This document shows, one piece after another, positions 4,826-37,945 of a DNA stretch of 64,000 bases; the stretch's first letter is position 1; each line of letters starts with the position of its first letter. A program made the position numbers and the translations under genes. Below the pieces are notes generated by a model. The model worked only from the letters and a program-made list of their open reading frames with translations. It was not told where the DNA came from and ran no database searches. The DNA lies in contig CAWBWI010000004.1 in NCBI GenBank assembly GCA_963792585.1, positions 256,001 to 320,000 of the forward strand, read 5' to 3'. The DNA is from Candidatus Eiseniibacteriota bacterium (GTDB lineage: Bacteria > Eisenbacteria > RBG-16-71-46 > CAIMUX01 > VGJL01).

Positions 4826-5524
4826 TCAGCGGTACCGTGCTTTGATGAGGCCCCAGGTGGTCGCGACAATCGGGACAGAACCCGTCTCCGTCACCGATAC
4901 GTCGAAGGAGCCAATGTTGTTATACCACCCGCAGCTGTCCAGCGTACCGAGGAAGAGACGGCGGGCGGCGACCGGAACGACCACCCCCTGGATGGCCCCG
5001 CCCGAAGTGAGCCCGTCCCCGATAAAGAACACCTGCTTGAGAAGGGGAAGAAGTGTGAGGTAGTCACGGCTTGCCGGTGAGCTGAAGTCCAGGTCGGAGG
5101 GAGCCGGACTCGAGTCGGGCTCCTGCTCCGTGAGGAACACGCCCACAAGGCAGTTGGCGGGAGCTCTTACGTTCGAGATGCCGTTCTCCGCGCCCGTGTC
5201 GTGCGACGCAATGTAGGCATTTCCATCGGGCGGATCTAGCGGGAACTGCGGGTCGTTTGCGACGCCGCCGGTCGCAGCGAATGTCAGCACATCCCCAGCG
5301 ACAAGAGCGAGACCATTCACGAGCTGCGGAGATTGTTGGGGCGCGTAGTCGCAGCCGCAAGCGCAACTGGCGCTCGATCCATCCGGCATTCCCGCCAGCC
5401 AGGGATCCGACCACCCCGGGACCGAAAGGTCGATTTGAGCGTGAGCCGCCGGAGAAACCCAGAGCGACAGGACAGCCTGGGCCATGGCGAAACACAAGAA
5501 CGCTGGGATCTTTGCGGTCTGCAT
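4826..5524 (-). CDS. Secreted protein with TTWG-type C-terminal tail
   Basis: Signal peptide (AAHA|Q); 'QVFFIGDG...RLFLG' domain; ends 'VPIVATTWGLIKARYR'. Confidence 0.85.
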   Translation of the reverse strand: MQTAKIPAFLCFAMAQAVLSLWVSPAAHAQIDLSVPGWSDPWLAGMPDGSSASCACGCDYAPQQSPQLVNGLALVAGDVLTFAATGGVANDPQFPLDPPDGNAYIASHDTGAENGISNVRAPANCLVGVFLTEQEPDSSPAPSDLDFSSPASRDYLTLLPLLKQVFFIGDGLTSGGAIQGVVVPVAARRLFLGTLDSCGWYNNIGSFDVSVTETGSVPIVATTWGLIKARYR

Positions 5525-5625
5525 GCTATGCCTCTCCTTTCCAGGGAATCATCCACCGAACCAGAGCACGGAGGCGAGTACTGCGGCGGGTCCGACGAGG
5601 TGCAGTCGCGCTGCGGCGAACCAGA

Positions 5626-6402
5626 TCACCGGTAACTCGCCTTGATCCTCCCCCAGGTGGTCGGCTCCACAGGCGTCGGCTCGCAGGGATTGGGATCGCA
5701 GGCGGTATCGTCACCCGCGTAGGAACCTCCAGCAGTCGCGCAATCGACCTCCGTCCCGAGAAGGCACGCGCCCGAGGCGAAGCAGCAGGCGCCCATCGGA
5801 GGCCCTGCCGTCTCGACGGTGAAGTCCAGCTGGGTGGTGTCGTAGTAATAAGAGATCGGATCGACCGCGCACTCGATCACATCTCCCGCCTGCACGGTCA
5901 GACGGGTGGTGTAGCCCGCAGGCTGCCAGAGGGTACTGAGCGTGGCCGAGAAGAGTTCTGTGCCGTTGGCGTAGACGCGGACGATGTCGGAGCCGAGATC
6001 CCACATCACGAAATGCGCGGTCAGAAGAACCGTCATGTCTTGTGGTGCTGTCCAGCGGACGACGGTTTGCTGGGTCTGGCCAGGGTGGAAATACGTTGTA
6101 TGCGGTGGGAGATCATAGGTCGATACGCAGTGGTAGGGTTCATCGTGGAAGTTGTACCACACACCGGGGTTCATTTCGCCGTCCCACCACCACCAGAGGT
6201 CACAGTCGTTCAGGGGTGAGTTGTCAGTGAAGAGTGCCAATTGCTGTTCCGGGGTATCCCGCCAACCGAACGACCACACTCCGTTTGGATTCTGGGTCGC
6301 CGAGAAGTCATCCCCTAGGTTCCAGACCTCACCATGGCTGATGACCGGGCATAAGACCAACAGCAGGCAGCCGGCAAGCGCGATTCGCATCTTCATGATC
6401 AT
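5626..6402 (-). CDS. Secreted protein with GACC module and TTWG tail (paralog of 33906-34682)
   Basis: Signal peptide; 'DDFSATQNPNGVWSFGW' domain; 'GACCFASGAC...CDPNPC'; ends 'TTWGRIKASYR'. Confidence 0.85.
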   Translation of the reverse strand: MIMKMRIALAGCLLLVLCPVISHGEVWNLGDDFSATQNPNGVWSFGWRDTPEQQLALFTDNSPLNDCDLWWWWDGEMNPGVWYNFHDEPYHCVSTYDLPPHTTYFHPGQTQQTVVRWTAPQDMTVLLTAHFVMWDLGSDIVRVYANGTELFSATLSTLWQPAGYTTRLTVQAGDVIECAVDPISYYYDTTQLDFTVETAGPPMGACCFASGACLLGTEVDCATAGGSYAGDDTACDPNPCEPTPVEPTTWGRIKASYR

Positions 6403-6489
6403 GCTCTCCCCAGAAATACGATGGCATTCCTCGGCGAATGGGAGTGGGGGTGGCCACAAGTTGAATGAGGCGACGTATGGAAAGTAGAT

Positions 6490-6965
6490 GCCCCTCGGAC
6501 CTCTCGGGCAAGGGGCTCATCGTGGGCACTATGTGGAACTGCGACCTGCATGCTTGACTCCAGAACCTCGACCCCACGTGAACTGGCCTGCATTAGTCGT
6601 CGCGATAGGGCGGCGAATGCGTCTGGAGAAGTCGCAACAAGGATACCGCCGTTCCCGCAGGAACTCCAGCGGCATTGCGCGCTTCGAGACGCACCATGTA
6701 CTTCGAGAGGGCGCGACCTCGATCCGAGTTTGAGCAGCTCCCATGGATGCGCGGCGCGCCCCAGAGCGTCTTGGCCTCAACATCTGCCGGATGAGATCAC
6801 GAACTTCCTCGGGACTCCGGTCTACAACGCCTTCGATCGGCTCTTCCACCGCCAGAGAGCCGGAATCCTTCGCGGTGCCATCGGATAACGGCTCGGCTAA
6901 CGATGGCCAGCGACGCCGCCAGCCGGTCCAGAACCTGGAGAGCAGGTCCAGAGGCCCATCGTGGC
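6490..6965 (-). pseudogene. Decayed rve-type IS remnant
   Basis: Frameshifted fragments reading 'LLSRFWTGWRR', 'EEVRDLIRQM...WGAPRIHG..LKLG' and 'GVEVLE', colinear with the transposase at 28758-29856. Confidence 0.7.
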
Positions 6966-7090
6966 TCGCAGCGTGTTTCTGGCTGTCATTGGAGCCAAGG
7001 AGTTGTGGGGAGGCCGATCTCCCGGCGAGGCGCGTGGCTTGCGCAGTCAGAGCGCGGTGTGGTAGTGCGGGCTCGGCGCGGCCGCGGCGT

Positions 7091-7160
7091 GGGCGTTCAC
7101 CACGGAGACGCGATTTCGTGAAGCGCCCTTCCTGGGCATCGCTCATGCTGAGAGCGTACT
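7091..7160 (+). repeat. Intergenic repeat family, copy A (left core only)
   Basis: GGCGTTCACCAC-N7-CGATTTCGTGAAGCGCCCTTCCTGGGCATCGCTCATGCTGAGAGCGTAC. Confidence 0.75.
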
Positions 7161-7232
7161 CATAGGCCACCCCACGTTCGCGAGCCTTGTACTTCTGCGG
7201 CGGCGTCTCCCCGAGGACGTCTGGATCGGGCA

Positions 7233-7979
7233 TCACCGGAACAGCGACTTCACCTCACCCCAGGTCGTGTTCTTTACCGGCGTAGACTCGCACGGATTGG
7301 GATCGCAGGGGGCTTCGTCACCCATATAGCTCCCTCCCGCCTGCTCACAGTCTGCCTCTTGACCCACCAGGCAACCACCCGACGGGAAGCAGCAGGCACC
7401 GACCGTGAATTCGAACATCTCCCACTCCTCGATGATCATCTGCTCGTAGCACCCGCCATAGCCGCCCCAGTTGCTCAGGCCGTAGAGGCGGTAGTAGCGA
7501 TACCCCGTCGTCTTCTGAAAGAAGAACGACTGCCACTCATGCCGATTCGCATACTGCATGAGGCCCTCATGAAGTGGCGTATAGGTGACACCATCGTTTG
7601 AACCTTCAAAACGAAAGTCCTTGAGGCGGAGGTTAGAGTCCCACGTCTCGCTGTAGGCTAGAACCTTAAGTTGCTTCACGGTGCGTGACGCACCGAAATC
7701 GATCTGAACCCAGTGCGGGAAGATCTGGCCAGTCCGCTCGTCCCCAGAGTGCCATGACGCGTATTCCAGACCGAGTTGGTTGTTGGAGACATTCGAAGGA
7801 TCGTACACGCCATACAAGTCGTAGAGCACCGAATCGGCTGTGTGCGGCAGAGATGAATCCGTGATATCTGCCTGGGCCTGCGCCGGTGGGACCGAGGCCA
7901 GCACGAGGGTCATGGCCGTCGCCAAGACGGTCCCAACAAGAGAGAAGCGGGAAATAGAACCAGCGGTTGGGAAGATCAT
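7233..7979 (-). CDS. Secreted discoidin (F5/8 type C-like) domain protein with GACC module and TTWG tail
   Basis: 'PHWVQIDFG...KDFRFEGSNDG...YRYYRL'; GACC module; ends 'TTWGEVKSLFR'. Confidence 0.85.
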   Translation of the reverse strand: MIFPTAGSISRFSLVGTVLATAMTLVLASVPPAQAQADITDSSLPHTADSVLYDLYGVYDPSNVSNNQLGLEYASWHSGDERTGQIFPHWVQIDFGASRTVKQLKVLAYSETWDSNLRLKDFRFEGSNDGVTYTPLHEGLMQYANRHEWQSFFFQKTTGYRYYRLYGLSNWGGYGGCYEQMIIEEWEMFEFTVGACCFPSGGCLVGQEADCEQAGGSYMGDEAPCDPNPCESTPVKNTTWGEVKSLFR

Positions 7980-8310
7980 TGCACCCTCCGAGGTTATCGA
8001 ATCCCTGGCCTCGTTTCCACGGAGCACGACAACTGCGCGTTCTAGGAAGTTCTGATCCGCTCACCAGGACAAGAGTGTTCTTCACCGACGCAGGGCCGCA
8101 GCTTCGCGCGCTCTATGATACGCTTGGGGGACACGAGGAACCAGCAGTTCGTCGTCCAGCGGATCCGCCCTGCGCGACCCTTCAACCTGGAGACGAGTTG
8201 CCAAAGGACAGAACCTCTTGTTACGCGCGCCCTTCGGGTCATCGAGCGGGTGCGGGCACTCGGAGTCTCGGTTTCCGGTGATTCCCTCGCTCGGCCCATC
8301 GCGATCGCGT

Positions 8311-8378
8311 GAGCGTCCACCACGACAACGCAGTTTCGTGAACCGTCCTCAGCGGGCATCGCTCAGGACGAGAGCGTC
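8311..8378 (+). repeat. Intergenic repeat family, copy B (left core)
   Basis: GAGCGTCCACCAC-N7-CAGTTTCGTGAACCGTCCTCAGCGGGCATCGCTCAGGACGAGAGCGTC. Confidence 0.8.
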
Positions 8379-8442: not shown

Positions 8443-10320
8443 TCACTTCAGCATGAGCATCTTCCGCTGCGTCTTGGAGCCGGCCGTCTGCAGTGTATAG
8501 AAGTACACGCCGGCGCCGACGGCCCTTCCAGCGTCGTCACGGCCGTCCCACAGCGCCGAGTGCTCACCTGCCGACTGGTTCCCGGAGACCAGAGAGCGGA
8601 CAAGCCGGCCGACTGGGTCGTAGATCGTGAGAGTTACCGCGTGGTCCCTTCCTAGCCGGAAGCCGATGGAGGTCGCGCGGCTGAACGGATTGGGTCGGTT
8701 CTCGTAGAGGACTGCTGTTCTCGTCGCCGCTGGCGAGGAAACAGAGGAAGATTGCAGACAGCGCAGAACTGACTGATACGCGTCGATGAAGCCCCAGCCA
8801 TAGTCGTTGTCTTCTCCGGCCGCACCCTCATCCCGCGCGGTGTCCAGGATGATCTGCTTGATCGTTTCGACGTCGATGTCGGGATTGGCCGAACGCATGA
8901 GACCGACGACGCCGGCGACGTGAGGGCCTGACGCCGAGGTTCCGCCACCATAGGCGTAGCCGCCGCCCGGCGAGGATGAGTACACCCGAACGCCGGGAGC
9001 ACAGATCTCCGGCTTGATCCGGTTCTCGGGAGGCACGCCGGTGCAGCCGCTCGGACCGCGGCTGGAGAAACCGGCGATCGGGTAGGGCCAGCCATAGTCG
9101 GTGGCGTTGACGGCCCCGACCGATAGGCAGTTGAGGGGAGTCGTGGCGCGGTCGGCAGGAGAGCCGATGGTTTGAGCGCCCGGGCCCTCGTTGCCGGCGG
9201 ACCAGGTCGTGACCACGCTTGCTGCTTCGCAGTTGTCGATGACCGCCCACCAGCGAATATCGCAGTCGGTGTAGTCCCAACCGCTTTCATTGATGCGCCA
9301 CGAGTTCTGGACGACGTCGGGCACGTCGTCGACCGTGTTCGGGTTGCCGTCTGGGTCCGCAAACCACTGGTAGCAGTTGATGATGTCGTTGTCGAACTCC
9401 GGTCCGGCACTCTGGTTGCATGGGTTGGCCGCGATCCACTGTGCGCCCCAGGCGACACCGATCGTATCCTGGGTGGTGCCGGCTACGCCGGTCTCTATTC
9501 CCATGACTGCGGTGCCGTGCCCCGAGCCGTCGTTTGGGTACTGAGTATTACTGCCAAGAACGTCATGCCAGCACTCCTGCCACGGATGCCCGCTGTTGCC
9601 GCGCCAGCGGCTGCTCAGGGCCGGATGGTTGCCGTCGACGCCGGTGTCGCAGTTGGCGACGATCGCTCCGGATCCGTTGATCCCAAGCTGGTACCACACC
9701 TCGGGGGCGCGGATGGCGCGTAGCCCCTCCGTGACCCCGATGCCTCTGGGGTCTTCTCCCTGCTCAGGAGCGGGCGTGTTGTCTACAGGTTCCATGGGCG
9801 CGGCCTTGAAGTTCGGCTCCAGGACGTCCACATCCATTCTGGTGGAAAGTTGCTCCAAGGCACTCCGTGTCCCCCGGACCACGATCAGATTGGCGATCCA
9901 GTAGGGTGTGTATCCCGCGATCTGTCCCGTGGCCTTGAGGGTGGCGATCTCGGCCAGGATGGGGCCCTGGGTCTCCCTCGCAGTCCGCTGCAGTTCCTCG
10001 ACTACACGGCGATGTCGTTCGACGCGGCTCGCATTGCCGGCCCTCAGGGCCTCATTCAGGACGTCGATTCTGGCTTGCTGCTCCAGGATCAGGATCGCCG
10101 AAGCCTGCTGATGTGGGGCCAATCGCGAAAGCTCTCCCCGCAAGGCGGGATGGATCGTGCCGGCTCCGGCCGGGATCGCGGGAAGGACCAGACCCGCGAG
10201 GAAGACCAGTACGAGAACCAATTGAGGGGTGCATCGGCCGCGTGCCAAGAGCCGGTTCCGGCTGCGAAGCGAGCGAGGAGATTGAGCTTGCACTTGGGCG
10301 GGCTGGAGCTGGTCAACCAC
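8443..10320 (-). CDS. Subtilisin-like S8 serine peptidase (bacillopeptidase F-like) with prodomain and FlgD-Ig tail
   Basis: Catalytic triad motifs 'NCDTG', 'GHGTAVMG', 'GGTSASGPHVAG'; oxyanion 'SAGNEG'; tail 'PNPFS...IYDPVGRLVRSL...WDGRDDAG...GVYFY'. Confidence 0.92.
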   Translation of the reverse strand: MVDQLQPAQVQAQSPRSLRSRNRLLARGRCTPQLVLVLVFLAGLVLPAIPAGAGTIHPALRGELSRLAPHQQASAILILEQQARIDVLNEALRAGNASRVERHRRVVEELQRTARETQGPILAEIATLKATGQIAGYTPYWIANLIVVRGTRSALEQLSTRMDVDVLEPNFKAAPMEPVDNTPAPEQGEDPRGIGVTEGLRAIRAPEVWYQLGINGSGAIVANCDTGVDGNHPALSSRWRGNSGHPWQECWHDVLGSNTQYPNDGSGHGTAVMGIETGVAGTTQDTIGVAWGAQWIAANPCNQSAGPEFDNDIINCYQWFADPDGNPNTVDDVPDVVQNSWRINESGWDYTDCDIRWWAVIDNCEAASVVTTWSAGNEGPGAQTIGSPADRATTPLNCLSVGAVNATDYGWPYPIAGFSSRGPSGCTGVPPENRIKPEICAPGVRVYSSSPGGGYAYGGGTSASGPHVAGVVGLMRSANPDIDVETIKQIILDTARDEGAAGEDNDYGWGFIDAYQSVLRCLQSSSVSSPAATRTAVLYENRPNPFSRATSIGFRLGRDHAVTLTIYDPVGRLVRSLVSGNQSAGEHSALWDGRDDAGRAVGAGVYFYTLQTAGSKTQRKMLMLK

Positions 10321-10412: not shown

Positions 10413-10626
10413 TAGTCTTGAGGTTGGACGAATGTGGGATGGGGGCCGACTCACCTTCAGGTTGCCGCGACGCCAGTTCCCTCAGATCGAACAGACCCCG
10501 CGTTCTATCGGGCTATAGGCGCTCAGATCACTTGCAGATTCGACCTCATCCGCGCCCAGCGATTCCGCATTCGTGACCGGCTGGGGTGGTCCGTTGCTCC
10601 GTCCCCCGCAATCCCCGCGCTGCGGC

Positions 10627-10978
10627 CCCCACGCCCGGCATGCCCCGCTCTCCTCAGCGTCCACCGCGAGCACGCAGTTACGTGAACCGTCCGCTCTGGG
10701 GTCCGGAGCGGACACCCGCGTCCACCACTCGGCGGTTAGAGAACGGAGAGGCGAGAGTTTCGGCTCATCTGCGGACCTTGCGTCCACCACTTCCCCGGAC
10801 GGCGTTCGACCAGAGAGTCACGCCGCCCGACCCACCTCTGCAAGACCTTCGCATTCCTGCGGATACAACGCGCCTTTTCGCGGGTCAGGGCCATCGCTTC
10901 GTCTACCACTCTCGGTCACGCGAGTTCGTTGCCCGCAGCTCCGGCTCCCCGCTCAGGACTGTTTACTAACGGTTCTCT
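10627..10978 (+). repeat. Intergenic repeat family, copy C (full length, about 350 bp)
   Basis: Left core CAGTTACGTGAACCGTCC; several CGTCCACCAC boxes; right end GGCTCCCCGCTCAGGACTGTTTACTAACGGTTCTC; colinear with copies E and I. Confidence 0.75.
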
Positions 10979-11119
10979 ATTCCAAACTCGGCACGCCCCC
11001 GTGACAACTCCGACGGAACACGGTGATGCTGCTCGGCATGAAGCCAAGGAGCGATCCTCTCTCATGGCAGAAAGAAGATCGCCCCCTGACTCAGAGGCTC
11101 GACTCAGGTTCGTCCCAGG

Positions 11120-20601: not shown

Positions 20602-21267
20602 TCAGCCGTCATCCCTGTCGCAACCGCAACCAGACCGAGGAATGCGACAGTGATCTGCCCCAGACACCCGCTGACGCGTGTGCGCTCGAAGCGGGGACCG
20701 TCGTCTGGATCTGATTGAGCATCTTCGTGGCCCCGCGCCGTTGACTTCACGCGAGCCAAGTACTCTGATCCGCCTCCGAGCGGCACATCCTCAAGTTTCC
20801 CTGAGGAACGGGCTGCCAGAATGTAGCTGTACTCCGGGTCAGCGAAGAATCTGGGACGAATAGTCCCTGTCGCTTCTATGAGCTCCATCCCGCTTGATGC
20901 GATTGTGGTTACGCCGGTTCGCTGAAGAGGCTGCTCGATCGGGATAGAGGCTCATCGAGCGTCGGTAGACAGCTCCCCTGGCCGTGTCCTGCGTTTCGCC
21001 CTTCCTGACCGGGCGCGGCGGCCCGGCGCTGCTTCAGATGTCGGTGGGTGCGGCTTCCCGGCAGGTGGGAACGAAAATGGCGTCATGGGCTGCCTCCGCA
21101 ACACCCACAACGCCTTCCGCTTTGTGGCCGGGCCGCTGTCTGGTGATATGTACCGATGCGGTGCGTTCACCGCGATGAATCAGTTTCTACGCGGGGAGCG
21201 GGAGCGTGTCAAGGGCGACCCGAGAAGCATCTGCTTCCCAGGCCGCCCCGATTCGCATGCCATCAGT

Positions 21268-22864: not shown

Positions 22865-23230
22865 TGGGGGCCAGGACGCAGATGCCCCTCGGCCCACTCG
22901 GCGGAGGGGCTTCCAGTAGGCGCAATGAGAATCTGCGACCTGCATGCTCGACTCCAGAACCTCGATCCCACGTGAACTGGCCCGCGCAAGTCGTCGCGAT
23001 GAGGCGGCGTATGCGTCTGGAGAAGACGCAACGAGGATACCGCGATCACGGAGGGAGCGCCAGCGGCATTTGATGAGCGTTCGCCACGACCGCACAGTTT
23101 CGTCAACCGTCCTCAGCGGGCATCGCTCATGCTGAGAGCGTCCACCACTCGGCCGCGATCCTCGACGATGAGGGCGCGTTGCGCCTGAAACGAGGAGATC
23201 AGGGCACGGATAATGGTGAAGAGCAAGGCG
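22865..23230 (-). pseudogene. Decayed IS remnants flanking repeat copy D
   Basis: 22865-23075 matches 6488-6680 and 34765-34960 ('GIEVLE'); 23160-23230 reads 'IIRALISSFQAQRALIVE', like the transposase N-terminus. Confidence 0.6.
23075..23158 (+). repeat. Intergenic repeat family, copy D (left core)
   Basis: GAGCGTTCGCCAC-N7-CAGTTTCGTCAACCGTCCTCAGCGGGCATCGCTCATGCTGAGAGCGTCCACCAC. Confidence 0.8.
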
Positions 23231-23430
23231 GGAAGGCTATCGTAGATCTGCGCGTAACTGCAAGCCAAGCGGCGAGGACGGAGTTTTTCAGAAGCCATAG
23301 CTCTTTCATGCCGCAAGTGTGTGCCACGCGCTGCCCTTAGCGCACGGACGGCTCGGGTCTGAAACCACCGACCGACTGGGCTCGCGCTGCGCACCCCGCG
23401 CGTTCGCGCGCGTGTTAGACACCACCTATT

Positions 23431-24270: not shown

Positions 24271-24522
24271 GAAACACCTCCATATGCTTGGGTGGCAAAG
24301 CCATGGACTGGCACTGTGTCCGGGACCGTTTGTCGCGGAGGGAGGCAAGGCCGAAGGGAAACGTGCGGTTGCGGCCGCATCTCAGCGTCTCCTTTGTCGG
24401 AGCACGGATTCGACGCATCACCGTCTCGACCTGTTTGCGCAAGAGGATTCTACGCCCCGCGAGCACTCATGTCCAAGCAGGAGATCGGGATCTGCTCTCT
24501 CGAAGCCTGGCCGAGCACCAGG

Positions 24523-24887
24523 TATCCCGCCCGGCATGTCCCGACCGCATCGGTGTTCACCACGAGCGCGCAGTTTCGTGAAGCGCCCGCAGCGGGCACC
24601 GCTCATGCCGAGAGCGTCCACCACTCGACCAACAGAGAGAGTGCCACAGAGAGTTACGCCCTCTCACGCCCCAATTTCGCGGCGGTTCACAGCGATCGCG
24701 CTCGACACAGTTCGCAAACAGAGAATCCGCATCGTCGTGCCACGCGCGCAACACGCACGCGTTTCTGCGGATAACAAGGAGCGCCGGAGGCATCAACCAC
24801 CGAGGCTCCGTCCACCACTCTCGCCACGATAAGCTCGTGGCCTGCTTGTCTGGCTCCCCGGAGAGGACAGATTACGAACGGTTCTCT
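24523..24887 (+). repeat. Intergenic repeat family, copy E (full length)
   Basis: Left core CAGTTTCGTGAAGCGCCCGCAGCGGGCACCGCTCATG; right end GGCTCCCCGGAGAGGACAGATTACGAACGGTTCTC. Confidence 0.8.
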
Positions 24888-24917
24888 CCTGTCGCGGCCC
24901 TCGAAGCGCCAGGTCTC

Positions 24918-27900
24918 TCAGTTGATCCGTATCACTCCCCTCCTCCAGCACTTCTCCCCAGCACTCAGGCGCAGGAAATACACACCCGGGGCGACCTGAC
25001 CTCCGCCTGATCCTCGGCCATCCCACGCGAGGGAGTGCGTCCCTGCAGCCACTACCCCAAGATCCAGGGTTCGAATCGTCCGACCGGCGGCATCAAAGAC
25101 ATCCAGACGCGCCGGCCCCGCATTCGATAGGCGATACCATAGTACCGCTGAGGTCGAGGATGGGTTTGGAACCACGCCAAGGATTCCCTCCCCGCCTACT
25201 GCAGCGATGGCAGGAATGCCTGACACCGGACACGGATTCGGATCACAGGTCGTCCATTCAGGATGCCAGACATTGGGGGCAACGCAGGCCGCCTGAGTGG
25301 TCATGGCGCATGTCTCTGCTACCGGATTGCAGCAGGCGCCGACCTGCGGACAGGGGTTCGGGGTGCAGGTCGCCCACTCCCCGTGCCAGACGTTTGGAGC
25401 AACACACTCAAGCGACGTCGTCATTGTACAGGCTCCGGTTGTCGGGTTACAGCACGCACCCTGTGGCTGTGGACAGGGATTCGGCGCACAAGTCGTCCAC
25501 TCCCCGTGCCATACATTCGGAGCGACACACTCAGGTGGCGTTGTGACTGTGCACACCCCAGTCGTCGGGCTACAGCACGCGCCTTGTGGCTGTGGACACG
25601 GGTTCGGCGCACAGGTCGTCCATTCCCCGTGCCAGACGTAGCCGCAGTTCGCCTGGGTCGTAACCGTACATGTGCCCGTGGCCGGATTGCAGCAGGCCCC
25701 AACCGCGGGGACCAAACCCAGACTGCGATAGGCGCCCGCCGCGACCGCTACGAAGCCGGCGTTCGGTGTGGGGACATGGGACTCGCCGTAGTAGTTCGTC
25801 CCCCATGCCACGATCCTTCCATCGGCCTTGAGACCCAGACTGTGACGAAACCCCGCAGTGACTGCGATGAAGCTGGTATTAGGCTCCGGAACGTTACACT
25901 CACCGGAACCGTTGTACCCCCAAGCGATGATCGAGCCATCGGATTTCAGGCCCAAACTGTGATACTGACCCCCAGCGACCGCTACGAAGCCGGTGTTCGG
26001 CGCGGGGACGTAGCACTGGCCAAACCAGTCGAGACCCCATGCCACGATCGTCCCGTTGGACTTCAGGCCCAGACTGTGATAGTTGCCCGCCGCAACTGCC
26101 ACGAATCCGGCGTTTGGCGCGGGGACGTAGCACTCGCCGCTGAAGTTGTTGCCCCATGCCACGATCGTCCCGTTGGACTTCAGGCCCAGACTTTGACTGG
26201 TGCCCGCTGCGACCGCCACGAAGTCGGCGTTCAACGCGGGGACGTTGCACTGGCCGTAGTCGTTGAGCCCCCACGCCACGATGGACCCATCGGCTTTGAG
26301 AGCCAAGCTGTGAGCCCCTCCCCCCGCGATCGCTACGAAGTCCGCGTTCGGCGCGGGGACGTTGCACTGGCCGTAGTCGTTGAGCCCCCATGCCACGATC
26401 GTCCCGTCGGACTTGAGACCAAGACTGTGCTCATTGCATCCATTGATCGCCACGAAGTCGGCGTTGGGCGCCGGCACATCGCACCCGCCGTTGTCGTTCT
26501 TCCCCCATGCCACGATCGAGCTGCCGCCTGGTTGAGGACATGGATTCGGAAGACAGGACGTTCCCGGACCCATCCAGACGCTGGGGAACGTGCATAGATT
26601 CTCGGTCACCACTAGGCAATTCCCCGTCACGGGATTGCAGCAGCCGCCGGGTGGACAGGGGCTTGGGTCGCAGCTCGTCGTTCCGCCCCATCCTCCCCCT
26701 CCTTCGGCGCAGGTTGCCTGAGGTAGTTGCTCGCAGTGTCCATCGGGGAAGCAGCAGGCCATCGGAGTGGACGGGCAGGGATTCGGGTCACAAGTGCTTG
26801 GGTATCCGAGCGGAACCCCTCCTTCGGAGAGGCAAACGCGTTCCGTGACGAACTCACAGTGCTCGTCCGGGAAACAGCAGGCCGACGACTCCGGAAGCGT
26901 GATCGACCAGTCGAGCGTGAAGTCCGCGCCCGCGTCTGGGCCGGTGGCGTCGGCGATCAGGTAGTAGGTCCCGGCGGCTCCCACCGTCCATGTGAACGTC
27001 TCCGGCTCCGGATTGTCCGCGCCGACCACACAACTGGCCATATCACCGCAATCGGAGAGGATGTAGATGGATCCATCATATGCTGGAGTCGCATAGACGA
27101 CGTGGACGATGTCGCCGACGACCACGTTCAGTATGTACACGAGATCCCTGCCGTGTGCAGAGTTGCCGGTGCAACCGTTCGTCGGGTTGTAATCGTTGAA
27201 CGCGCCCGCCAGGTTCGCGGCGATCGAGCCGCTGCCGTAGCGGGGCAACTCGATCGCACCCGAGCACAAGTCGTTCGGCGGTCGCGCGCATGGATTTGGG
27301 TTACAGCTCGTATCGATGCCCGATGATCCCCCTCCTTCATCACAGGCAGCCTGGAGACAATTGCTCGCAACGCCCATCGGGAAAGCAGCAGGCCATCGGA
27401 AGCGACGGGCAGGGATTCGGGTCACAAGTGCTCCCGGGTCCCTGGTATGCCCCCCCGAGTTGGGAGCAGTCCACAGGCATGAGGGACTCGCAATGCAAAT
27501 CGGCAAAGCAGCACGCTCCGGGAACCGGAGGAGTTGTATAGAACCGCTGACTGGCGTCAAAAGGGACGCCAATGAGATCCTCAATCCGAATCCAGTCCGG
27601 GTACCCGTAGGCTTCGGAACGAAACGTAGATTGATAGCCGGTCACCTGCCCCGCCGCGAGATGAAACCAACTCGGCGGGATCGCATGGTCGCACGCTTGG
27701 GCCGAGAACCAGTATGACCCTACCCCAATATCCGCCGACACGGATGCGTGATACTCGTAGACTCTTGCGCCCTCGGGGCCCTGGCCTACATCGATCGTCC
27801 ACGTCGGGGTGGATTCGAGATACTCGGCCACGATGGAACCCGGAACACCACCAGCGTCAGAGTAGAACCGCAAGTTGAATGCAGTGACATTTGGTTCGCC

Positions 27901-28218
27901 TTCTCCGTTTTCGTACACTCCCCACCACACGGCTTCAAGGATGGTCGTTTGCGCCGAAGAGTAGAAGTCGTTTGCGACTTCGGTCTCGGTCCCATAGACA
28001 GCATTGATCTCTGACATCAGCGCCGATCCGTTGAGATCCGGAGGCTCGTCCCACCATCCGTCCCGATCCCCGAGCATCACCGCCGGCGGCCCGCTGCCGC
28101 GATGCGCGAGCCCAAGCGTCGGGGGACCGGCAATTCCAACTGCCGGACAGAGCATCACGAAGATCAAGCAGAGACCCAAACTGAGGAATCCGACCCGCGA
28201 CGACCCTTGGTTCTTCAT
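24918..28218 (-). CDS. Third paralogous large secreted protein: 9 GACC modules, PPC-like insert, 7 RCC1 repeats, FlgD-Ig tail; frameshift near 27350
   Basis: ORFs 27340-28278 and 24918-27584 join at 'CEQLS/QAACDEGGG'; same N-terminal domain as the genes at 11120 and 14451. Confidence 0.85.
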
Positions 28219-28682
28219 CTGACGGCCCCTTTCCCTCTGTCCCAGTCGGTTCCGAGCAGCATGACGCCACGCGTCCAAGTGGATGGATTATCTCGGGTGA
28301 ACGGACGATCACCGGCTCCACTGCTCGTACTCATCGGAAATCAATGGGATCAAGTGCGCGGATCTCACAGTAAGTGCCCTTCCGGTCGCGTCCGCGTAGT
28401 TGAAGGCGGAATAAGTATACTCCCGCATGGGGTGGAAGGCGCATATTGTAGTGGAGGAGGCTTGCTCTATTCCGGACGCCACCCAAGAAGGCTGACCCAG
28501 GGATCTGCCGCCCCAGGCGATGATTGCGGGGTCTCCGGCTGGTTGGTCGGTGCGTCGGGGTGGAATACTTCCGATCGTGGCCACCGCTGTTCCAACACGT
28601 CCCATTCACGCATCCGTGGATCGCTCATCGTGGCGGCGACTCGCAAACTGAGGGGGACGCTCCCTATCGGGCCAAGATCACC

Positions 28683-30056
28683 TGTGCTTCACGAGAATCC
28701 CTGCAGCCGCTCCCCCAGACAGATCTGCCGCCAATCCGTGATACGCTCAGCGACCTCATGGAAACACTTCTATCCGGACTGCTCAGATTCCTCCGCGCGA
28801 TTCTCCAGTCGAGGACAACTCTGGCCTTGGAGAACGCCGCCCTGCGCCAACAACTCACGATCTACGAACGCTCTCAGAGGCATGTTCGGCTCCGAAGTGA
28901 AGATCGACTCTTCTGGATCTTTCTGCGCCGACTCTGGTCGGGCTGGGATCGGACCCTGATCGTCGTCAAGCCCGAGACCGTGATCGCATGGCATCGACGA
29001 GGCTTCAAACTCTTCTGGAGGAGGAAGTCGGGGCCGTCCGTAGGCCGACCGAAGATCCCACGGAGTCACATCCGATACATCCAGCGCATCTCGGGCGACC
29101 ACCCGGAGTGGGGCGAGGACAGGATCGCCGAAGAACTTGTCGCCAAGTTCGGAGTCTCACACTCGTCCAGCACCATCCGTCGGTACATGGTTCCACGCGA
29201 GCGACCGCCCCGCGCAGAAGCAGACCTGGCGCACCTTCATTCAGTAACCATGCCGGGCAGGTGTGGGCCTGCGACTTCCTCACCCAGTACACGGCTTTCT
29301 ATGCCGTCATCCACGTCTTCGTCATCATGGAGGTCGGATCGCGGCGGATCGTCCATGCCAACGTCACGAGCAACCCGACATTGTCATGGGTGAAGCAGCA
29401 GTTCCGGGAGGCGACGGCCGATGGCCAGATGCTCCGCGCTTCCTCGTCCACGACAACGGCGGAATCTACCGGCAGTGGGGGAAGCCCCTGGTCGTGGAGG
29501 AGGAAGGCCGGAGCCGCAGCTACCGATGCCATCTCGATCTCTGGTTGGACCAAGTCATGGGTATCGAGGGGCTGCCGATTCCCTACGGAGCGCCGAACGC
29601 GTCGCCCCACATCGAACGGTTCATGAGGACGCTACGGCAAGAGGCGCTGGACCACTTCATCTTCCTCAGTGCCGATCACATCCGTCGAGTCGTCAGCGAG
29701 TACGTCCGTTACTACAACGGGGCGCGCCCGTCGCAGGCGATTCACGGGATTCCCGATCCATACCCGGAGCTACGGCAGCCACCACCGACCGCGGGACGAT
29801 TGGTTGCCCTCCCCATCCTGGGTGGCGTCCAGCACGACTACCGGTTGGTCGCGTAGCTCTCTTTCGTCCGTTCGGCCACGCTCAATCGCGAGGGATAACT
29901 ACGCCCCGGCCGGTCGGAAATCTCCTCGACGCGCTCGCACTTGCTTTTCGGAGCGCCTCGAGAGCATGGATCGTTGCCCTGCTACGTCCCAAGAACATCC
30001 AAGCCGACGATAATCAGGTTAGTCCGCCAAGGCGCATGGAGTTTTCTCGGAGTACG
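28683..30056 (+). mobile_element. Insertion sequence encoding an rve/integrase-core (DDE) transposase
   Basis: Transposase 28758-29856; imperfect terminal IRs TGTGCTTCACGAGAATCC / GGAGTTTTCTCGGAGTACG. Confidence 0.75.
28758..29856 (+). CDS. Integrase-core domain transposase (2-3 frameshifts)
   Basis: 'ENAALRQQL', 'PETVIAWHRRGF', HTH 'WGEDRIAEEL', 'WACDF' (D1), 'VHDNG' (D2), 'ERFMRTLRQE' (E), 'YYNGARPSQ'. Confidence 0.88.
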
Positions 30057-30057
30057 G

Positions 30058-30197
30058 GTTTCCAAACAGAGAATCGGCCCGGCGGAGGCACGCGCGCAAC
30101 AGGCGCGCAGCTCTGCGGATAACGAAGAGCCCCGATGGCATCAACCACCGAGGCTCCGTTCACCGCTCTGATCACGCGCAGGTCATGCAGCGGGGCC
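30058..30197 (+). repeat. Intergenic repeat family, copy F (right half, left half cut off by the IS)
   Basis: CAAACAGAGAATC...CTGCGGATAAC...GGCATCAACCACCGAGGCTCCG matches 24715-24810 and 35190-35290. Confidence 0.8.
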
Positions 30198-32681: not shown

Positions 32682-32967
32682 CGGCACCCCGCCGCGACTC
32701 CATCTTTCGGACCAGGAGTCGACGGAGCATCGGACCTTGCCAACATGAGGACGAAAGAAGCTCCCATACAAGCCAGCCATGGCGAATCCCCCGTTCGTAA
32801 TTGCACCTGTGGAATGATCCGCTGTTGTGACCGGGAAGTATCCTACGCTTCTCCGAGCCCACAAGCAATGTGGACTCTACGGCGGGTGATGTACGAGGTT
32901 GTGTGCCAGGCCGGTCTCAGGAAGTGCTTGAGACGGGCGGGAGATAGCTCCGTGTACCGCGCCCCGG

Positions 32968-33068
32968 CCCCATGCCGCCCTGTCCCGCTCGCATCCGCGT
33001 TCACCACGAGATCGCAGTTTCGTGAAGCGTCCTCAGCGGGCATCGCTCATGACGGGAGCGTCCCGCAC
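32968..33068 (+). repeat. Intergenic repeat family, copy G (left core)
   Basis: GCGTTCACCAC-N7-CAGTTTCGTGAAGCGTCCTCAGCGGGCATCGCTCATGACGGGAGCGTC. Confidence 0.8.
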
Positions 33069-33139: not shown

Positions 33140-33872
33140 TTACCGAAACAGCGACTTCACCTCACCCCAGGTCGTGTTCTTTACCGGCGTCGATTCGCAT
33201 GGATTCGGATCGCACGGAATCCCGTCGCCCACGTACGCCCCTCCGGCCACTTCGCAATCCTCCACGGTTCCCTCCAGGCAAGCACCCGATGGGAAGCAGC
33301 AGGCTCCAGTTCCGGTACTGGTGACTGACACGGCATCGAGCGCCAGTCCTTGCCCGAAATGGGGACTCCAGACGTGTGTGAACTGCAGCGTGGTCAGTTG
33401 GGAATCCGCCGTGAACCGCCTGGCGTAGGTCAGGTAGTTCATGTTGTCGCGCGTCGATCCGGAATGCGTGAGGGTCGTGTCGACCAGGTGTTGTGGTGCC
33501 CAGCACCTGCACCCTGCCGGTGGCCGTAGACGCATCTATGTTGTTCGCATATGCAAACGAGAGTGAGTACGCTTGCCCGGGTACGGTCGCGAAGGACTGC
33601 AGAATCGTGGTTCCGATGCCACTGTCACCGTCCAGATCGATCGACTGCGAGCCCTGGAAGGCAGGCCAGTAATCACGGACCAGATCGATGGTCCAGCCAT
33701 CCGGGATCGTCCAGCCTGTGATGAAGTCGCCCGTTACGTCGACGAAATCCGTGCCAGCGGGTAACGGTGGCAGTTCAAACCCGCCGTTCACGATCTGCTC
33801 TGCCATGGCCGTGGTCGCGCCGCCCAGGATGATGATGACCGCGACCATCCACGAACAAGACCTGTTCATCAT
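33140..33872 (-). CDS. Secreted DUF642/choice-of-anchor-C-like domain protein with GACC module and TTWG tail; frameshift near 33490
   Basis: 'IVNGGFE...WPAFQGSQSIDLDG...QSFATVPGQAYSLSF' joins 'LVDTTLTH...GLALDAVSV'; ends 'TTWGEVKSLFR'. Confidence 0.8.
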
Positions 33873-33905: not shown

Positions 33906-34682
33906 CTAACGGTAGATCGCCTTGACCCGCCCCCAAGTGGTGGTCTCAATGGGTGTCGACTCGCAGGGGTTGGGATCACAGGGAACCTCGTCGCCCAGGT
34001 AGGTTCCTCCCGCCCCCTCGCAGCCCGCCTCCGTCCCCAGCAGGCAATCGCCGGAGGCGAAGCAACACGCGCCGACCGGAGGCTCGGTGGTCTCCAGTAC
34101 GAAGTCGATCTGGGTGCTGTCGTAGTAGAAGGAGATGGGGCTCACCGCGCATTCCACCGTGGATCCCGCGTGCACGGAAATCGTCCCGCTGTAGTCCGCC
34201 GTCGTGCCGAGCCCATCGAGCGTCGCCTCGTAGAGCTCTATACCGTCGGCGAGGATGAATACAATCTTCGAGCCGATGTCGATGGACAGAAAGTGTGCGG
34301 TCACCGTCACACTGTCAGCGCTCGGCGCCGTCCACCGAACCACGCTCTGCTGAGCGGGCCCAGGATGAAAGAGGGCCTTATGCGGCTGGATGACAAAGGT
34401 CTGGCAGGTGATCGGGTAGTCGTGGGGGTTCCGGATCACATTGGGGCACCAGACCTCGAAGTACTTCACCCACGGTTCGAGATCGGGACAGAAGTAGTTG
34501 TGGTCGGTGTAGAGAGTCAGCGGCTCTTCCGCGGAGGGCCGCCACCCGTACGACCACGCCCCGTTCGGGTTCTGAGTTGCCGAGAAGTCATCGGCCAGGT
34601 TCCAGACTTCTCCCTGACTCACGACCGGGCACAGCAGCAGGAGCGTGCACACCACGCCCGCGATTCGCATCTTCATGGTCAT
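33906..34682 (-). CDS. Secreted protein with GACC module and TTWG tail (paralog of 5626-6402)
   Basis: 'EVWNLADDFSATQNPNGAWSYGW'; ends 'TTWGRVKAIYR'. Confidence 0.85.
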   Translation of the reverse strand: MTMKMRIAGVVCTLLLLCPVVSQGEVWNLADDFSATQNPNGAWSYGWRPSAEEPLTLYTDHNYFCPDLEPWVKYFEVWCPNVIRNPHDYPITCQTFVIQPHKALFHPGPAQQSVVRWTAPSADSVTVTAHFLSIDIGSKIVFILADGIELYEATLDGLGTTADYSGTISVHAGSTVECAVSPISFYYDSTQIDFVLETTEPPVGACCFASGDCLLGTEAGCEGAGGTYLGDEVPCDPNPCESTPIETTTWGRVKAIYR

Positions 34683-34764
34683 TTTCTCCTCTGAAATACG
34701 ACGGCATTCCTCGACGAACGGGAGTGGGGGTGGTCGCAAGTCGAATGAGGCGGAGTATGGAATG

Positions 34765-34960
34765 TGGCTGCCCTTCGGACCTCTCGGCGGAGGGGCTTCC
34801 CACGAGCACGCTGTGGACTTACGGCCTGCATACTCGGCTCCAGAACCTCGATCCCGTGTGCACCGGAGTGGCGCTCATCGTCGCGGTCGGGCGGCGAAGG
34901 CGTCTGGAGAAGTCGCAACGAGGGTACCGCCATCACGGCTGAGACTCCAGCGGCATTTGC
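34765..34960 (-). pseudogene. Decayed IS remnant
   Basis: Homologous to 6488-6680 and 22865-23075 (CTCCAGAACCTCGA...GCGTCTGGAGAAG.CGCAAC). Confidence 0.6.
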
Positions 34961-34961: not shown

Positions 34962-35325
34962 GGGCGTTCACCGAGAGGCGGCGCAGCACTACCGGTCAGA
35001 AAGCGGTCCTTGTTGCTGCGGTAGCGGTTACGAGGATCACCAGCGAGGCTGGTCGGAAACCGTATCGAGCGGTACCGCTCATGCCGAGAGCGTCCACCAC
35101 ATCGTCGGAGAGAACCGAGAGGAAGAGAGTTTCGCCCCCTCGCGCCCCAATTCGTGACGGTTCACACCGCTCGCGCTCGATACACTTCGCAAACAGAGAA
35201 TCCGCACCGCCGAATTCACCCCCGCAACACGCAAGCGTTTCTGCGGATATAGACGAGCCTTGGCGGCATGCACCACCGAGGCTCCGTCCACCGCTCTGAT
35301 CACGCGCAGGTCATGCAGCGCGGCC
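34962..35325 (+). repeat. Intergenic repeat family, copy H (internally disrupted)
   Basis: GGCGTTCACC...ACCGCTCATGCCGAGAGCGTCCACCAC...CGCAAACAGAGAATCCGCA...CCGCTCTGATCACGCGCAGGTCATGCAGCG. Confidence 0.75.
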
Positions 35326-37497
35326 TTATCTTCAAGAGCACGACTCGCGCGGTCCTCGTCCCCGCGTTCGTCGAAACGCGTGCCAGATAGATCCCCGGCA
35401 CGACCTCGCGGCCCGCATCGTCACGTCCATCCCAGACCACGTCGTGAACGCCGACGCTCATGATCTCGTCCTGTAAACATCGTACCAAGCGCCCCGCAAC
35501 ATCGTGGATGGTCGTCCGCACGGAGCCTGCGGTCGGCAACTCGAAGCGAATCGCCGCCTGCCGCCACGCCGGATTCGGGACCGTACGCAGACGAAACGTC
35601 GCGGCGATGTCCGTGTTCTCGGCGTTTCCTACCGGCTCGCACTGGACCGGCAGAATCTGGAGACCGGAATCGTAGTCTGCGACGTAGGCGTGGGTGCCCG
35701 AGACGGCCACGCCACGGGCACTCCCCGGCGTGTCCACGCTGCCCACGATCTGCGGGCTCGCGGGATTCGTGATGTCGATCACCTGGAGACCGGGATCCCA
35801 GTCCGCGACGTAGGCGTAGGTGCCCGAGACGGCCACGCCATAGGCAGTCGTCCGGCGTGTTCACGCTGCCCACGATCTGGGGGCTCGCGGGATTCGTGAT
35901 GTCGATCACCTGGAGACCGGATCCACTGTCCGCGACGTAGGCGTGGGTGCCCGAGACGGCCACGACCATAGGCAGTCCCCGGCGTGTCCACGCTGCCCAC
36001 GATCTGGGGGCTCGCGGGATTCGTGATGTCGATCACCTGGAGACCGGAATACCTATCCGCGACGTAGGCGTGGGTGCCCGAGACGGCCACACCATGGGCA
36101 TCGCCCGGCGTGTCCACGCTGCCCACGATCTGTGGGCTCGCGGGATTCGTGATGTCGATCACCTGGAGACCGGAATCGTACGTCCGCGACGTAGGCGTAG
36201 GTGCCCGAGACGGCCACACCATAGGCACTCCCCGGCGTGTCCACGCTGCCCACGATCTGGGGGCTCGCGGGATTCGCGATGTCGATCACCTGGAGACCGG
36301 ACGTCCGCCGTCCGCGACGTAGGCGTGGGTGCCCGAGACGGCCACGCCATGACGCGCACTCCGGCGTGTCCACGCTGCCCACGATCTGAGGGCTCGCGGG
36401 ATTCGTGATGTCGATCACCTGGAGACCGGAATCCCCGTCCGCGACGTAGGCGTGAGTGCCCGAGACGGCCACGCCTTGGGCACGTCCCGGCGTGTCCACG
36501 CTGCCCACGATCTGGGGCTCGGGGATTCGTGATGTCGATCACCGAAGACCGGATGCTCAGTCCGCGACGTAGGCATAGGTGCCCGAGACGGCCACGCCCA
36601 CGGCACGTCCGTGTCCACGCTGCCCACGATCTGGGGCTCTGGGATTGTGATGTCGATCACCTGGAGACCGGAATCCGTCCGCGACGTAGGCGTAGGTGCC
36701 CCGAGACGGCCACGCCAACGGCAGTCGCCCGGCGTGTCCACGCTGCCCACGATCTGGGGGCTCGCGGGATTCGTGATGTCGATCACCTGGAGACCGGACT
36801 ACCCAGTCCGCGACGTAGGCGTAGGTGCCCGAGACGGCCACGCCCATGGCATAGCCCGGCGTGTCCACGCTGCCCACGATCTGGGGGCTCGCGGGATTCG
36901 TGATGTCGATCACCTGGAGACCGGACGCGCCGTCCGCGACGTAGGCGTAGGTGCCCGAGACGGCCACGTCCATAGGCATCGCCCGGCGTGTCCACGCTGC
37001 CCACGATCTGGGGGCTCGCCGGATTCGTGATGTCGATCACCTGGAGACCGGACTCGGCCGTCCGCGACGTAGGCGTAGGTGCCCGAGACGGCAACGTCCA
37101 TAGGCATCGCCCGGCGTGTCCACGCTGCCCACGATCTGGGGGCTCGTCGGGATTCGTGATGTCGATCACCTGGAGACCGGAGCTGCCGTCCGCGACGTAG
37201 GCGTAGCTGCCCGAGACGGCCACGCCCAAGGCATCGCCCGGCGTGTCCACGCTGCCCACGATCTGGGGGCTCGCGGGATTCGTGATGTCGATCACCTGGA
37301 GACCGGAGCCCCAGCCGTCGGCGACGTAGGCGTGGGTGCCCGAGACGGCCACGTCCATAAGCCCAAGTCCCGGCGTGATCCACGCTGCCCACCCAGTGGA
37401 GGTAGTCTCCGTAGTCGATGCACTCAGCAGAGGCAGGGCACGAAACTACGAGCACCCCAAGGAATGCCAGACCGATGACAACCACGGGAACTCTCAT
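35326..37497 (-). CDS. Secreted LVIVD-repeat beta-propeller protein (14 repeats) with FlgD-Ig tail; many apparent frameshifts
   Basis: Signal peptide (ASA|E); repeats '[42 protein letters not shown]'; tail 'PNPAW...WDGRDDAG...GIYLARV'. Confidence 0.85.
35650..37395. repeat. Coding tandem repeat, about 126 bp x 14
   Basis: CGAGACGGC recurs at about 35700, 35825, 35952, 36079, 36206, 36334, 36461, 36584, 36702, 36830, 36956, 37084, 37212 and 37341. Confidence 0.9.
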
Positions 37498-37637
37498 GGC
37501 CAGTCCCTCCCTTCGATCTGCCACCGAAAGCACAGTCAATTCAGCACGGAGAGATGCGGCGGGATGAGTTTAGGGGATCCTGACGCTCGGATCCATGGCG
37601 GATTTCGTAAACCCTTGCTCTGCACGCCACGCTCGCG

Positions 37638-37945
37638 TGAGCATCCACCAGGAGAACTCAGTTTCGTATGCGGTTCGCTGTGGGGTTCGCTCATGTTGAG
37701 AGCGTCCACCACCGGGGGGATAGAGAATGGAGAGGCGAGAGTTCCGCCCCATTTTCGGCCCGTGCGTTCACCACTTCCGCGGACGCCAATCACGCAGAGA
37801 GCACGCCCCCGGGACCCGCCCGCGCAACACCCTCGCATTTCTGCGGATACAACGCACCTTTTCGGCATCGTCGCACCGACGCTCCGCTCACCACTCTCCG
37901 CCGCTAAGTTCGTACCCTGCATCGTCCGGCTCCCCGCTCCTACCG
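37638..37945 (+). repeat. Intergenic repeat family, copy I (near full length, at the edge of the accessory region)
   Basis: GAGCATCCACCAGGAGAACTCAGTTTCGTA...GCTCATGTTGAGAGCGTCCACCAC...GGAGAGGCGAGAGTT...CTGCGGATACAACGC...CCGGCTCCCCGCTC; closest to copy C. Confidence 0.75.

Follow-up and report, generated by a model that had tools for sequence, protein, structure and literature searches.

In Dehalococcoides, genomic islands lie in tandem at the 3' end of the transfer-messenger RNA (tmRNA) gene ssrA, driven by a Ccr-like large serine recombinase (LSR) module with the serine integrase DsiB; many islands without the module keep their attachment (att) sites, and the cargo is one expanded gene family (PMC3146451). 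We describe a comparable organization in a 64,000-nucleotide stretch from a Candidatus Eiseniibacteriota bacterium (the window; C4:256001-320000 of a 5.4-Mb, 7-contig genome that is 84% complete), in which 14 genes for secreted-type proteins are interspersed with nine copies of a non-coding repeat, here called the arm. Contigs of this genome are designated C1, C3, C4 and C6, and fetched loci L plus a number. We regard the array as the probable product of mobile elements that piled up by integrating successively at the same kind of site and subsequently lost their mobility genes.

The system works like the ssrA islands, the staphylococcal cassette chromosome (SCC), the accretion of cis-mobilizable elements (CIMEs) and the tycheposons of Prochlorococcus, and its enzyme and target place it in none of these groups. 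Compared with Dehalococcoides, the target is tRNA-Asn instead of ssrA and the joint is a 300-bp non-coding arm instead of a 20-bp repeat; whereas dsiB overlaps attL, the LSR gene here lies 0.3-13 kb inside the element, has no overlap with the core and mostly reads away from it. Its partners are DUF2924 and a ParB-like helix-turn-helix (HTH) protein, and arrays also stand on ectopic tRNA-like half-sites. In SCC and SCCmec, LSR-type att sites likewise bound tandem cassettes, some of them recombinase-less, that can be excised singly or together (PMC11470126, PMC12286644). The LSR considered here, however, scores 162, 123 and 109 bits against CcrB, CcrC and CcrA, for which the NCBIfam cut-offs are 900, 900 and 700, its target is tRNA-Asn and not the 3' end of rlmH, and excision, which has been demonstrated for SCC, is putative here.

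Accretion of integrative and conjugative or integrative and mobilizable elements proceeds by integration, decay to a remnant that retains att, and entry of the next element into the remnant's att site (PMC5704250). With three cores, no recombinase and an orphan copy of a non-coding region (family C), the window fits the description of a CIME as an element whose att sites are kept and whose integration genes are lost; in that account, however, tRNA ends are targeted mostly by tyrosine integrases and serine integrases use gene-disrupting sites. Tycheposons are also cargo elements that, with relatives resembling phage-inducible chromosomal islands (PICIs), stack at tRNAs and leave partial tRNAs in islands, whereas 474 of 501 carry tyrosine recombinases and tRNA-Asn is outside their seven targets (bioRxiv 10.1101/2020.12.28.424599). 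The likeness to tycheposons and PICIs extends to DUF3854 primase-like, D12 methylase and gpA ATPase domains in the elements on C1. Finally, integrons (IntI/attC) share with the array co-oriented single-gene units parted by a repeat, and one cargo class, proteins with a TWG tail (our own label for a C-terminal TWGxIKxxY/F), also occurs in this genome's integron; they differ in site, in having the attC fold and cores that are absent here, in enzyme class, and in unit size, the units here being larger (median 2.9 kb) with long upstream regions. The long arm, the ectopic tRNA-like anchors, the units of about 3 kb and the secreted cargo are distinctive.

No account of a DUF2924-LSR-HTH family at tRNA-Asn was found in the literature searched, which excluded subscription journals and supplements, and the mentions of DUF2924 found there concern Wolbachia only; databases of the TIGER/Islander type may already hold the islands. 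Target and att sites can be named for an apparently undescribed, cross-phylum LSR family, providing a testable integrase with predicted attP, predicted attB and a candidate accessory factor, and a mechanism is offered by which an uncultured lineage may have collected hundreds of FlgD- and TWG-tailed secreted proteins.

Structure of the arm and its half-sites

A 40-sequence profile located the nine repeat copies at or near the positions listed by the original prediction, a model's note made from the letters alone, and placed all of them on the plus strand, in agreement with the uniform orientation that the note had described (E values of 3.5e-48 to 0.036; 20 shuffled windows, used as background, gave two matches in total at E <= 0.1). 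Likewise borne out was the proximity of eight copies to a stop codon, given as 0-280 bp: gaps to the next stop are, in order, 73, 64, 125, 277, 26, 27, 76, 1 and 466 bp, that is, 1-277 bp for eight copies and 466 bp for the ninth, at the array's edge. The arm is tied to the start of the gene on its left as much as to the stop on its right, and outside the window a gene may also start on its core side (C1:264 kb). The copies are unequal (Table 1), three being full, four being left pieces and two lacking the core end; the left 60-80 bp, next to the gene start, is the piece most often retained. The three full copies are 49-78% alike by segment, segments of one arm differ in their nearest neighbour, and the nearest relatives are often in other islands, which argues against a tandem-amplification hot spot, the alternative entertained in the original prediction, as the main source of the array.

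The repeat is a non-coding arm of about 300 bp (full-length profile matches measure about 320 bp), and every full copy ends in the core GGCTCCCC or in a near variant retaining TCCCC. Past the core lies either the end of a tRNA or a look-alike arm whose CGAAC motif is 5 bp further out. Among 61 distinct cores, 26 are of this long-spacing kind, 32 are short-spacing and three are unclassed; the short-spacing cores comprise 16 real tRNA ends and 16 degenerate tRNA-Asn-like fragments (17 and 15 by script, before L078 was moved by eye). Counted without these classes, CGAAC (at least four of five letters) stands at +10 from the core in 32 of 61 cases and at +15 in 19 of 61, while other offsets account for at most three rows each, except +4 (10) and +29 (7). 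A GGAC-like motif is constant at +5 in 43 of 61 cores, and the inverted motif GTTCG precedes the core by 14 nt in 28 of 61. In LSR attB half-sites, the motif bound by the zinc-ribbon domain (ZD) is 5 bp nearer the centre than in attP, and the recombinase domain (RD) binds in the same place (PMC3783163). The 5-bp shift around a fixed inner motif appears to be this attB/attP signature, and the T-loop of the tRNA would act as the B-type ZD motif.

The tRNA itself is tRNA-Asn(GTT), as called by ARAGORN: in 15 of 25 arm-bearing relatives the arm continues directly into its 3' end, on the opposite strand. Where left arms are identical (L044/L097/L062 and L050/L046), the change from one right arm to another falls in the core or immediately past it. 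In the window, two cores have long-spacing arms and the edge copy has a tRNA-like one; the edge copies of two C1 clusters are also tRNA-like, and tRNA-like halves occur internally as well (C1:1888 kb, L108, L203). The present genome's own tRNA-Asn (C3:1225623-1227194, L201), which is one of the 16 real tRNA ends, is followed by an ordinary terminator and adjoins no arm, but 1.4 kb downstream there is a partial arm that includes the core and a P' half-site. As other anchors, tRNA-Asp (window 50198-50275), tRNA-Gln and tRNA-Glu were rejected, their 3' ends having neither core nor arm.

Arm copies are only 55-67% alike and have GTTAAC/GTTCACC, GAGAG and CGCAA as conserved motifs. They contain a hairpin of 11 pairs in which 389 of 437 cells are paired, against a maximum of 373 in a shuffle control that ignores kinship; G-U pairs number 102 on the tRNA-sense strand and 13 on the other, a bias that would be expected of a tRNA terminator. 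RNAalifold gave no consensus pairs on the plus strand in 32 or 40 sequences and one hairpin on the other strand, and an Rfam search of the window returned tRNA only, the arm matching no family. There is no codon signal in the arm (synonymous fraction of 0.26-0.33 in all six frames, 11 copies); an LSR coding end (frame WLPGEDxLRT across the core) was rejected for the same lack of codon signal and for a stop in most copies.

The DUF2924-LSR-HTH operon and the proposed accretion

The repeat is linked to an operon that encodes, in order, DUF2924, the LSR and the ParB-like HTH protein. The LSR has Resolvase, Recombinase and Zn-ribbon domains with invariant catalytic-motif residues RKS, and its closest matches are Eisenbacteria records. 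Of the 81 LSR matches in the order, 21 adjoin DUF2924, and an arm lies within 15 kb of 16 of these 21 but of only 2 of the 60 others. An arm is likewise present within 15 kb of 19 of 31 DUF2924 matches, upstream and antiparallel in 18 of the 19 (at 301-366 bp in three), the exception being this genome's copy at C1:275 kb. The layout that recurs is tRNA or P' half, core, arm, 0.3-13 kb of cargo, family C region, DUF2924, LSR and HTH. The best 80 of 466 LSR loci in GTDB were examined, of which 19 had an arm, 15 a tRNA-Asn and 10 both; where a t(m)RNA was present (34 loci), it was most often tRNA-Asn. Fifteen of the 19 arm-bearing loci are outside Eisenbacteria (Planctomycetota, Acidobacteriota, Verrucomicrobia, Zixibacteria and one unclassified); four of the 80 come from Eisenbacteria and may duplicate genomes included in the counts above. 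More distant members adjoin tRNA-Arg, tRNA-Met, tRNA-Pro or tmRNA (tmRNA in 8 of the best 80). In 35 genomes picked from LSR loci, the arm was present in 29 and formed co-oriented groups in one planctomycete and one acidobacterium.

A profile built from the genome's own copies gave 28 matches, clustered at C1 204-312 kb (7, all minus), C1 1.77-1.95 Mb (7, all plus), the window (9, all plus) and C3 (5), and orientation was uniform in every cluster examined. The arm is present in 26 of the 35 genomes sampled from the order (sequence-only model) and in 64 of the 151 sampled from the class (broader model); these profile searches replaced BLAST across 206 genomes of the phylum, with three candidates scored per genome, which had given seven positives. 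All 40 pairs of adjacent arms less than 20 kb apart, from 13 genomes, are co-oriented (median spacing 2.9 kb), as are 25 of 25 pairs from 12 genomes when the source genome is left out; site-specific stacking would lead to such uniformity. Two relatives (L074, L069) have a second arm 1.8 and 3 kb inside the tRNA-anchored one. Secreted-type markers within 5 kb of a copy reach 2.24 per 10 kb, compared with 0.71 genome-wide, and 34 are antiparallel and 5 parallel to the arm; at fetched relative loci, some of which overlap and for which there is no baseline, the figures are 34, 13 and 1.0 per 10 kb. Cargo in relatives is mixed and includes non-secreted proteins.

We consider it probable that the array arose by tandem accretion of LSR elements that decayed to recombinase-less units at an LSR attachment arm; that recombination took place there, we infer. 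The LSR of the operon presumably cuts in the core GGCTCCCC, and each incoming element would have recombined into the core left by its predecessor. Such entry would leave all elements the same way round and make every internal junction arm-core-P'. Cargo would lie between arm and operon and, like the operon, read away from the site, which would account for its antiparallel orientation to the arm. The hairpin would terminate the transcript of the restored tRNA. The mobility genes and many cores were then probably lost through deletions, insertion sequences (IS) and homologous recombination, both among arms and among the C-terminal coding tails that the genes have in common, and the window would thus be a recombinase-less stack of cis-mobilizable remnants. 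It would be anchored on the tRNA-Asn-like half-site at 37928-37973, displaced or element-borne, and not on the genome's own tRNA-Asn. Remnants of rve-type IS do abut truncated arms. In terms of the original prediction, the repeat is still best regarded as the recombination joint of a non-integron system, although not of one new in kind, since it has the marks of an LSR attachment site at tRNA-Asn and fits known tandem accretion.

Several observations weigh against this reading. No recombination event, circle or empty site was found in reads, which gave fragmentary contigs of relatives only. The core is absent from six of the nine window copies, and the half-sites differ by 1 bp in length around the presumed crossover. 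In both C1 islands the DUF2924-LSR operon is frameshifted as assembled and is on a contig other than the window's, and one of the two C1 LSR copies (C1:274 kb) points the opposite way. Twelve of the 31 DUF2924 matches have no arm within 15 kb, many of them near contig ends; among the best 80 LSR loci, an arm within 10 kb is missing from 61 and a t(m)RNA from 46, and in several the LSR reads toward the arm or tRNA. Kinship among the sampled genomes and movement of elements in blocks mean that the counts overstate independence. About 50 bp suffices for LSRs, whereas the conserved motifs of the arm extend over a further 250 bp. Repeated integration would require attP x attR recombination, which strict phage LSRs are not known to perform. 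SCCmec LSRs are reported to accept many site pairings (PMC12286644).

The best-matching DNA sequencing runs shared 0.18 of the sequence words, and no RNA run was among the matches listed; four runs gave only short contigs of relatives, whose joints, at 88% likeness, were left out of account. A plasmid collection gave a single 31-bp match, taken as chance. In viral contigs the cargo proteins had no relative and the arm-core pattern no match, and the core-P' pattern had no exact match in metagenome contigs, exact patterns being insensitive in both cases.

The HTH protein is a weak candidate for an accessory factor. Its predicted complex with LSR residues 150-515 scored 0.52, compared with 0.00 for the best control, with runs agreeing in at least 83% of contacts and a partner predicted local distance difference test (pLDDT) of at least 73; 116 of 157 solved complexes reached the mark used, as did 2 of 215 mismatches, and because scores of 0.60 or under include only 18 of the 157 and both mismatches, the prediction is a weak one. 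Foldseek with the HTH model (pLDDT 83.5) gave no match at E <= 0.001; the top rows, which are non-significant and serve as a lead, were DNA-binding domains of Noc, Spo0J and ParB (E 0.04-0.3, TM about 0.5). The DUF2924 model (pLDDT 74, predicted TM-score (pTM) 0.36) also gave no Foldseek match at E <= 0.001.

The elements at C1:271-287 kb and 1919-1933 kb are related, each with DUF2924-LSR-HTH, a DUF3854/DUF927 primase-like protein, a D12 methylase, a gpA ATPase domain and a 211-aa tyrosine recombinase, and in one of them the LSR module has the reverse orientation to the remaining genes. At L148:8735-18705, two inverted arm-core-P' sites flank one DUF2924-LSR operon, possibly as an invertible segment or as head-to-head elements.

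Alternative explanations of the array

A more far-reaching version of LSR-driven accretion, which is possible and in our estimate rather unlikely, makes the array a serine-recombinase counterpart of the integron, a platform for gene capture that Eisenbacteria would have derived from a widespread tRNA-Asn integrative element. Recombinase-less units of 1.7-3 kb with a single secreted-protein gene would be inserted, excised and reordered in trans by DUF2924-LSR-HTH at portable tRNA-like landing sites distant from the tRNA gene. The arms, together with the C-terminal tails that the genes have in common, would provide homology joints for swapping N-terminal domains, building a repertoire of surface proteins alongside the true integron. 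If small units do still move in trans, this would be an integron-like system run by a serine recombinase.

In an improbable alternative, the arm would serve chiefly as a promoter or regulatory module, copied along with paralogous genes for secreted proteins through tandem amplification and gene conversion, and the likeness of its end to att would be fortuitous. Such a module would account for the frequent retention of the arm's left end by the gene start, for the common 3' tails and untranslated regions (UTRs) of the window's genes and for the excess of antiparallel secreted-type markers. It would also account for a tract of 1.45 kb, made up of the promoter and N-terminal part of a TWG gene together with the left arm, that is about 99.6% identical between the two C1 islands (C1:302630-304085 and C1:1944455-1945910), with flanks of ~78%; one end of the tract lies within the arm, immediately past a GTTCACC motif, and the other within the C-terminal coding tail, and the tract appears to be domain shuffling by conversion, in which promoter and N-terminal domain were swapped beside a C-terminal tail about 78% alike. 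It does not explain, however, why the arm is joined to tRNA-Asn in 15 genomes, why there is a shift of 5 bp, why the linkage to the LSR extends across phyla or why arms also lie beside non-secreted cargo, and by segment the window copies are mostly not each other's closest relatives. Co-duplication is thus largely refuted as the primary origin and is probably a secondary process acting on the array.

There is also a slim chance that a tyrosine recombinase, either the 211-aa enzyme or the integron integrase, acts at GTTAAC/GTTCACC motifs that copy the anticodon loop of tRNA-Asn, so that the tRNA-like fragments would be displaced tRNA halves and the truncated arms its products. Both C1 islands encode the 211-aa enzyme, as do two relatives near the arm, the tRNA-like half-sites do extend to the anticodon arm, and many truncations, like the 99.6% tract, end at or just after a GTTCACC-type motif. 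Right arms, however, switch at the core and not at the loop, and by eye no half-site is shared past the truncation points. The clustering of truncations is weak, since alignments are prone to break off where a conserved block ends, the arm varies most in the segment that follows the motif, and several of the truncations go back to one ancestor. Moreover, the 211-aa enzyme falls under all NCBIfam cut-offs, including that for integron integrases.

Very improbable is a miniature inverted-repeat transposable element (MITE), formed by arm plus P' half-site with inverted repeats of ~35 bp and inserted between genes. The 28 matches in the genome would suit one, and the left end of the arm looks like a P' half-site in reverse, to judge from weak inverted profile matches in eight copies (E 0.04-0.5). 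The original prediction had nevertheless argued against an ordinary MITE, correctly in view of the 40 co-oriented pairs and the absence of target-site duplication (in 10 full copies, the longest word common to a copy's own flanks is 5.5 nt, compared with 5.6 for non-cognate flanks); in addition, copies differ too much, the right end is a tRNA in many genomes and no Y1 transposase was found in the genome as assembled (84% complete). Repetitive extragenic palindromes with their associated transposase (REP/RAYT) were rejected, as the same assembly has no PF01797 match and the arm no palindromic unit.

An integron cassette array without an integrase (CALIN) with atypical attC sites is hardly credible, despite the gene-repeat-gene rhythm and the TWG-tailed genes in true cassettes, because the genome's attC profile (127 bp, 61 matches) has no match on C4, 10 full arms contain no RYYYAAC...GTTRRRY pair, the arm has no consensus fold, and IntI is on C6 with no tyrosine recombinase match on C4; the description of the repeat as unlike attC therefore stands. 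The 61 matches are divided among C6 (45), the two C1 islands (15) and C3 (1). The true chromosomal integron is at C6:618821-667775 (L199, L200); its IntI (TIGR02249) scores 431 bits against a cut-off of 265 and shares its strand with about 45 attC sites of 127 bp, and the cassettes include several for TWG-tailed secreted proteins and some duplicates. The 15 sites in the arm-bearing C1 islands (267245-269291, 1880074-1881474 and 1934613-1941677) are degenerate, have no integrase and are oriented like other cargo; they appear to be runs of integron cassettes carried as cargo.

Cargo genes and other features of the window

The 14 FlgD_ig- or TWG-tailed genes between 4826 and 37539 are all on the minus strand, as originally predicted, and form the longest same-strand run among the genome's 381 such markers. 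Their domains include RCC1, LVIVD, SBBP, beta-helix, S8, F5/8C and DUF642; signal peptides were assessed by eye only. Three of the 14 are split by frameshifts, which are common in this assembly and may be read errors. The prediction that the window holds no recombinase other than an rve type also agrees with our results, which yielded rve-type IS remnants only, with no tblastn match to DUF2924, LSR or HTH anywhere in the window.

Table 1. Arm copies, cargo genes and other features of the window.
Feature	Position	Strand	Remarks
Left piece of arm, GTTCACC-type motif at end	7087..7159	+	weak; E 0.036 with broad profile, 1.5e-9 with genome's own profile
Left piece of arm	8280..8378	+	profile match
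Full arm	10608..10994	+	arm 10667-10950; core GGCTCCCC 10943-10950; long-spacing (P'-type) half-site 10951-10980
Left piece of arm	23073..23155	+	profile match; abuts rve-IS remnant
Full arm	24511..24891	+	arm 24563-24859; core 24852-24859; long-spacing (P'-type) half-site to 24889; hairpin about 24778-24809
Middle piece of arm	30057..30174	+	profile match; left part lost beside IS remnant, core end lost
Left piece of arm	32969..33063	+	profile match
Arm without core end	35053..35301	+	profile match; altered left part from near 34962
Full arm, array edge	37599..37979	+	core 37928-37935, then degenerate tRNA-Asn-like short-spacing (B'-type) half-site to 37973
Three small TWG-tailed genes	4826-5524, 5626-6459, 7233-8027	-	last with F5/8 type C domain
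Subtilase S8 with FlgD_ig tail	8443..10320	-	
RCC1-repeat proteins	11120-14356; 14451-18274	-	second frameshifted
FlgD_ig protein	18661-19647	-	
Beta-helix TWG protein	21268-22575	-	
TWG protein	23431-24348	-	
RCC1-repeat FlgD_ig protein	24918..28278	-	frameshifted
SBBP/DUF7948 FlgD_ig protein	30198-32864	-	
DUF642 TWG protein	33140-33872	-	frameshifted
TWG protein	33906-34739	-	
LVIVD-repeat FlgD_ig gene	35300..37539	-	many frameshifts
rve-type IS remnant	28746..29727	+	not the arm's recombinase
rve-type IS remnants	3391-3657, 6689-6913, 23158-23289	-	
Family C non-coding region	21020..21213	+	elsewhere upstream of DUF2924-LSR operons; operon absent here

In the LVIVD-repeat gene, a 127-bp unit occurs about 14 times, with roughly 90% identity among units, and a paralogue with a near-identical promoter region is present at C1:1.900-1.901 Mb. 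Family F (window 6460-6676, 22746-23070 and 34740-34957) is an upstream region common to TWG genes, also found at C1:204.7-205.0 kb. Family B (window 4642-4754) is a 110-bp repeat with a short hairpin and seven copies in the genome, oriented like the arm and located just past gene stops. The small genes or remnants at 19766-20900, which we take to be zinc-ribbon-like and KH-domain-like, are duplicated at 92% at C1:1915928-1916750. Elsewhere, a multi-copy element of 2.2-2.7 kb (C1:115609-118091 and at least five other places, 93-96% identity) encodes a protein of 600-660 aa, presumably with a C-terminal HNH-like motif.

The GC content of the array is 62.2%, compared with 67.3% to its right. Outside the arm array, the window encodes two tandem GlgC-like nucleotidyltransferases (40355-43044) and three FlgD-tailed proteins (44026-49626), two of which have M14 peptidase domains.

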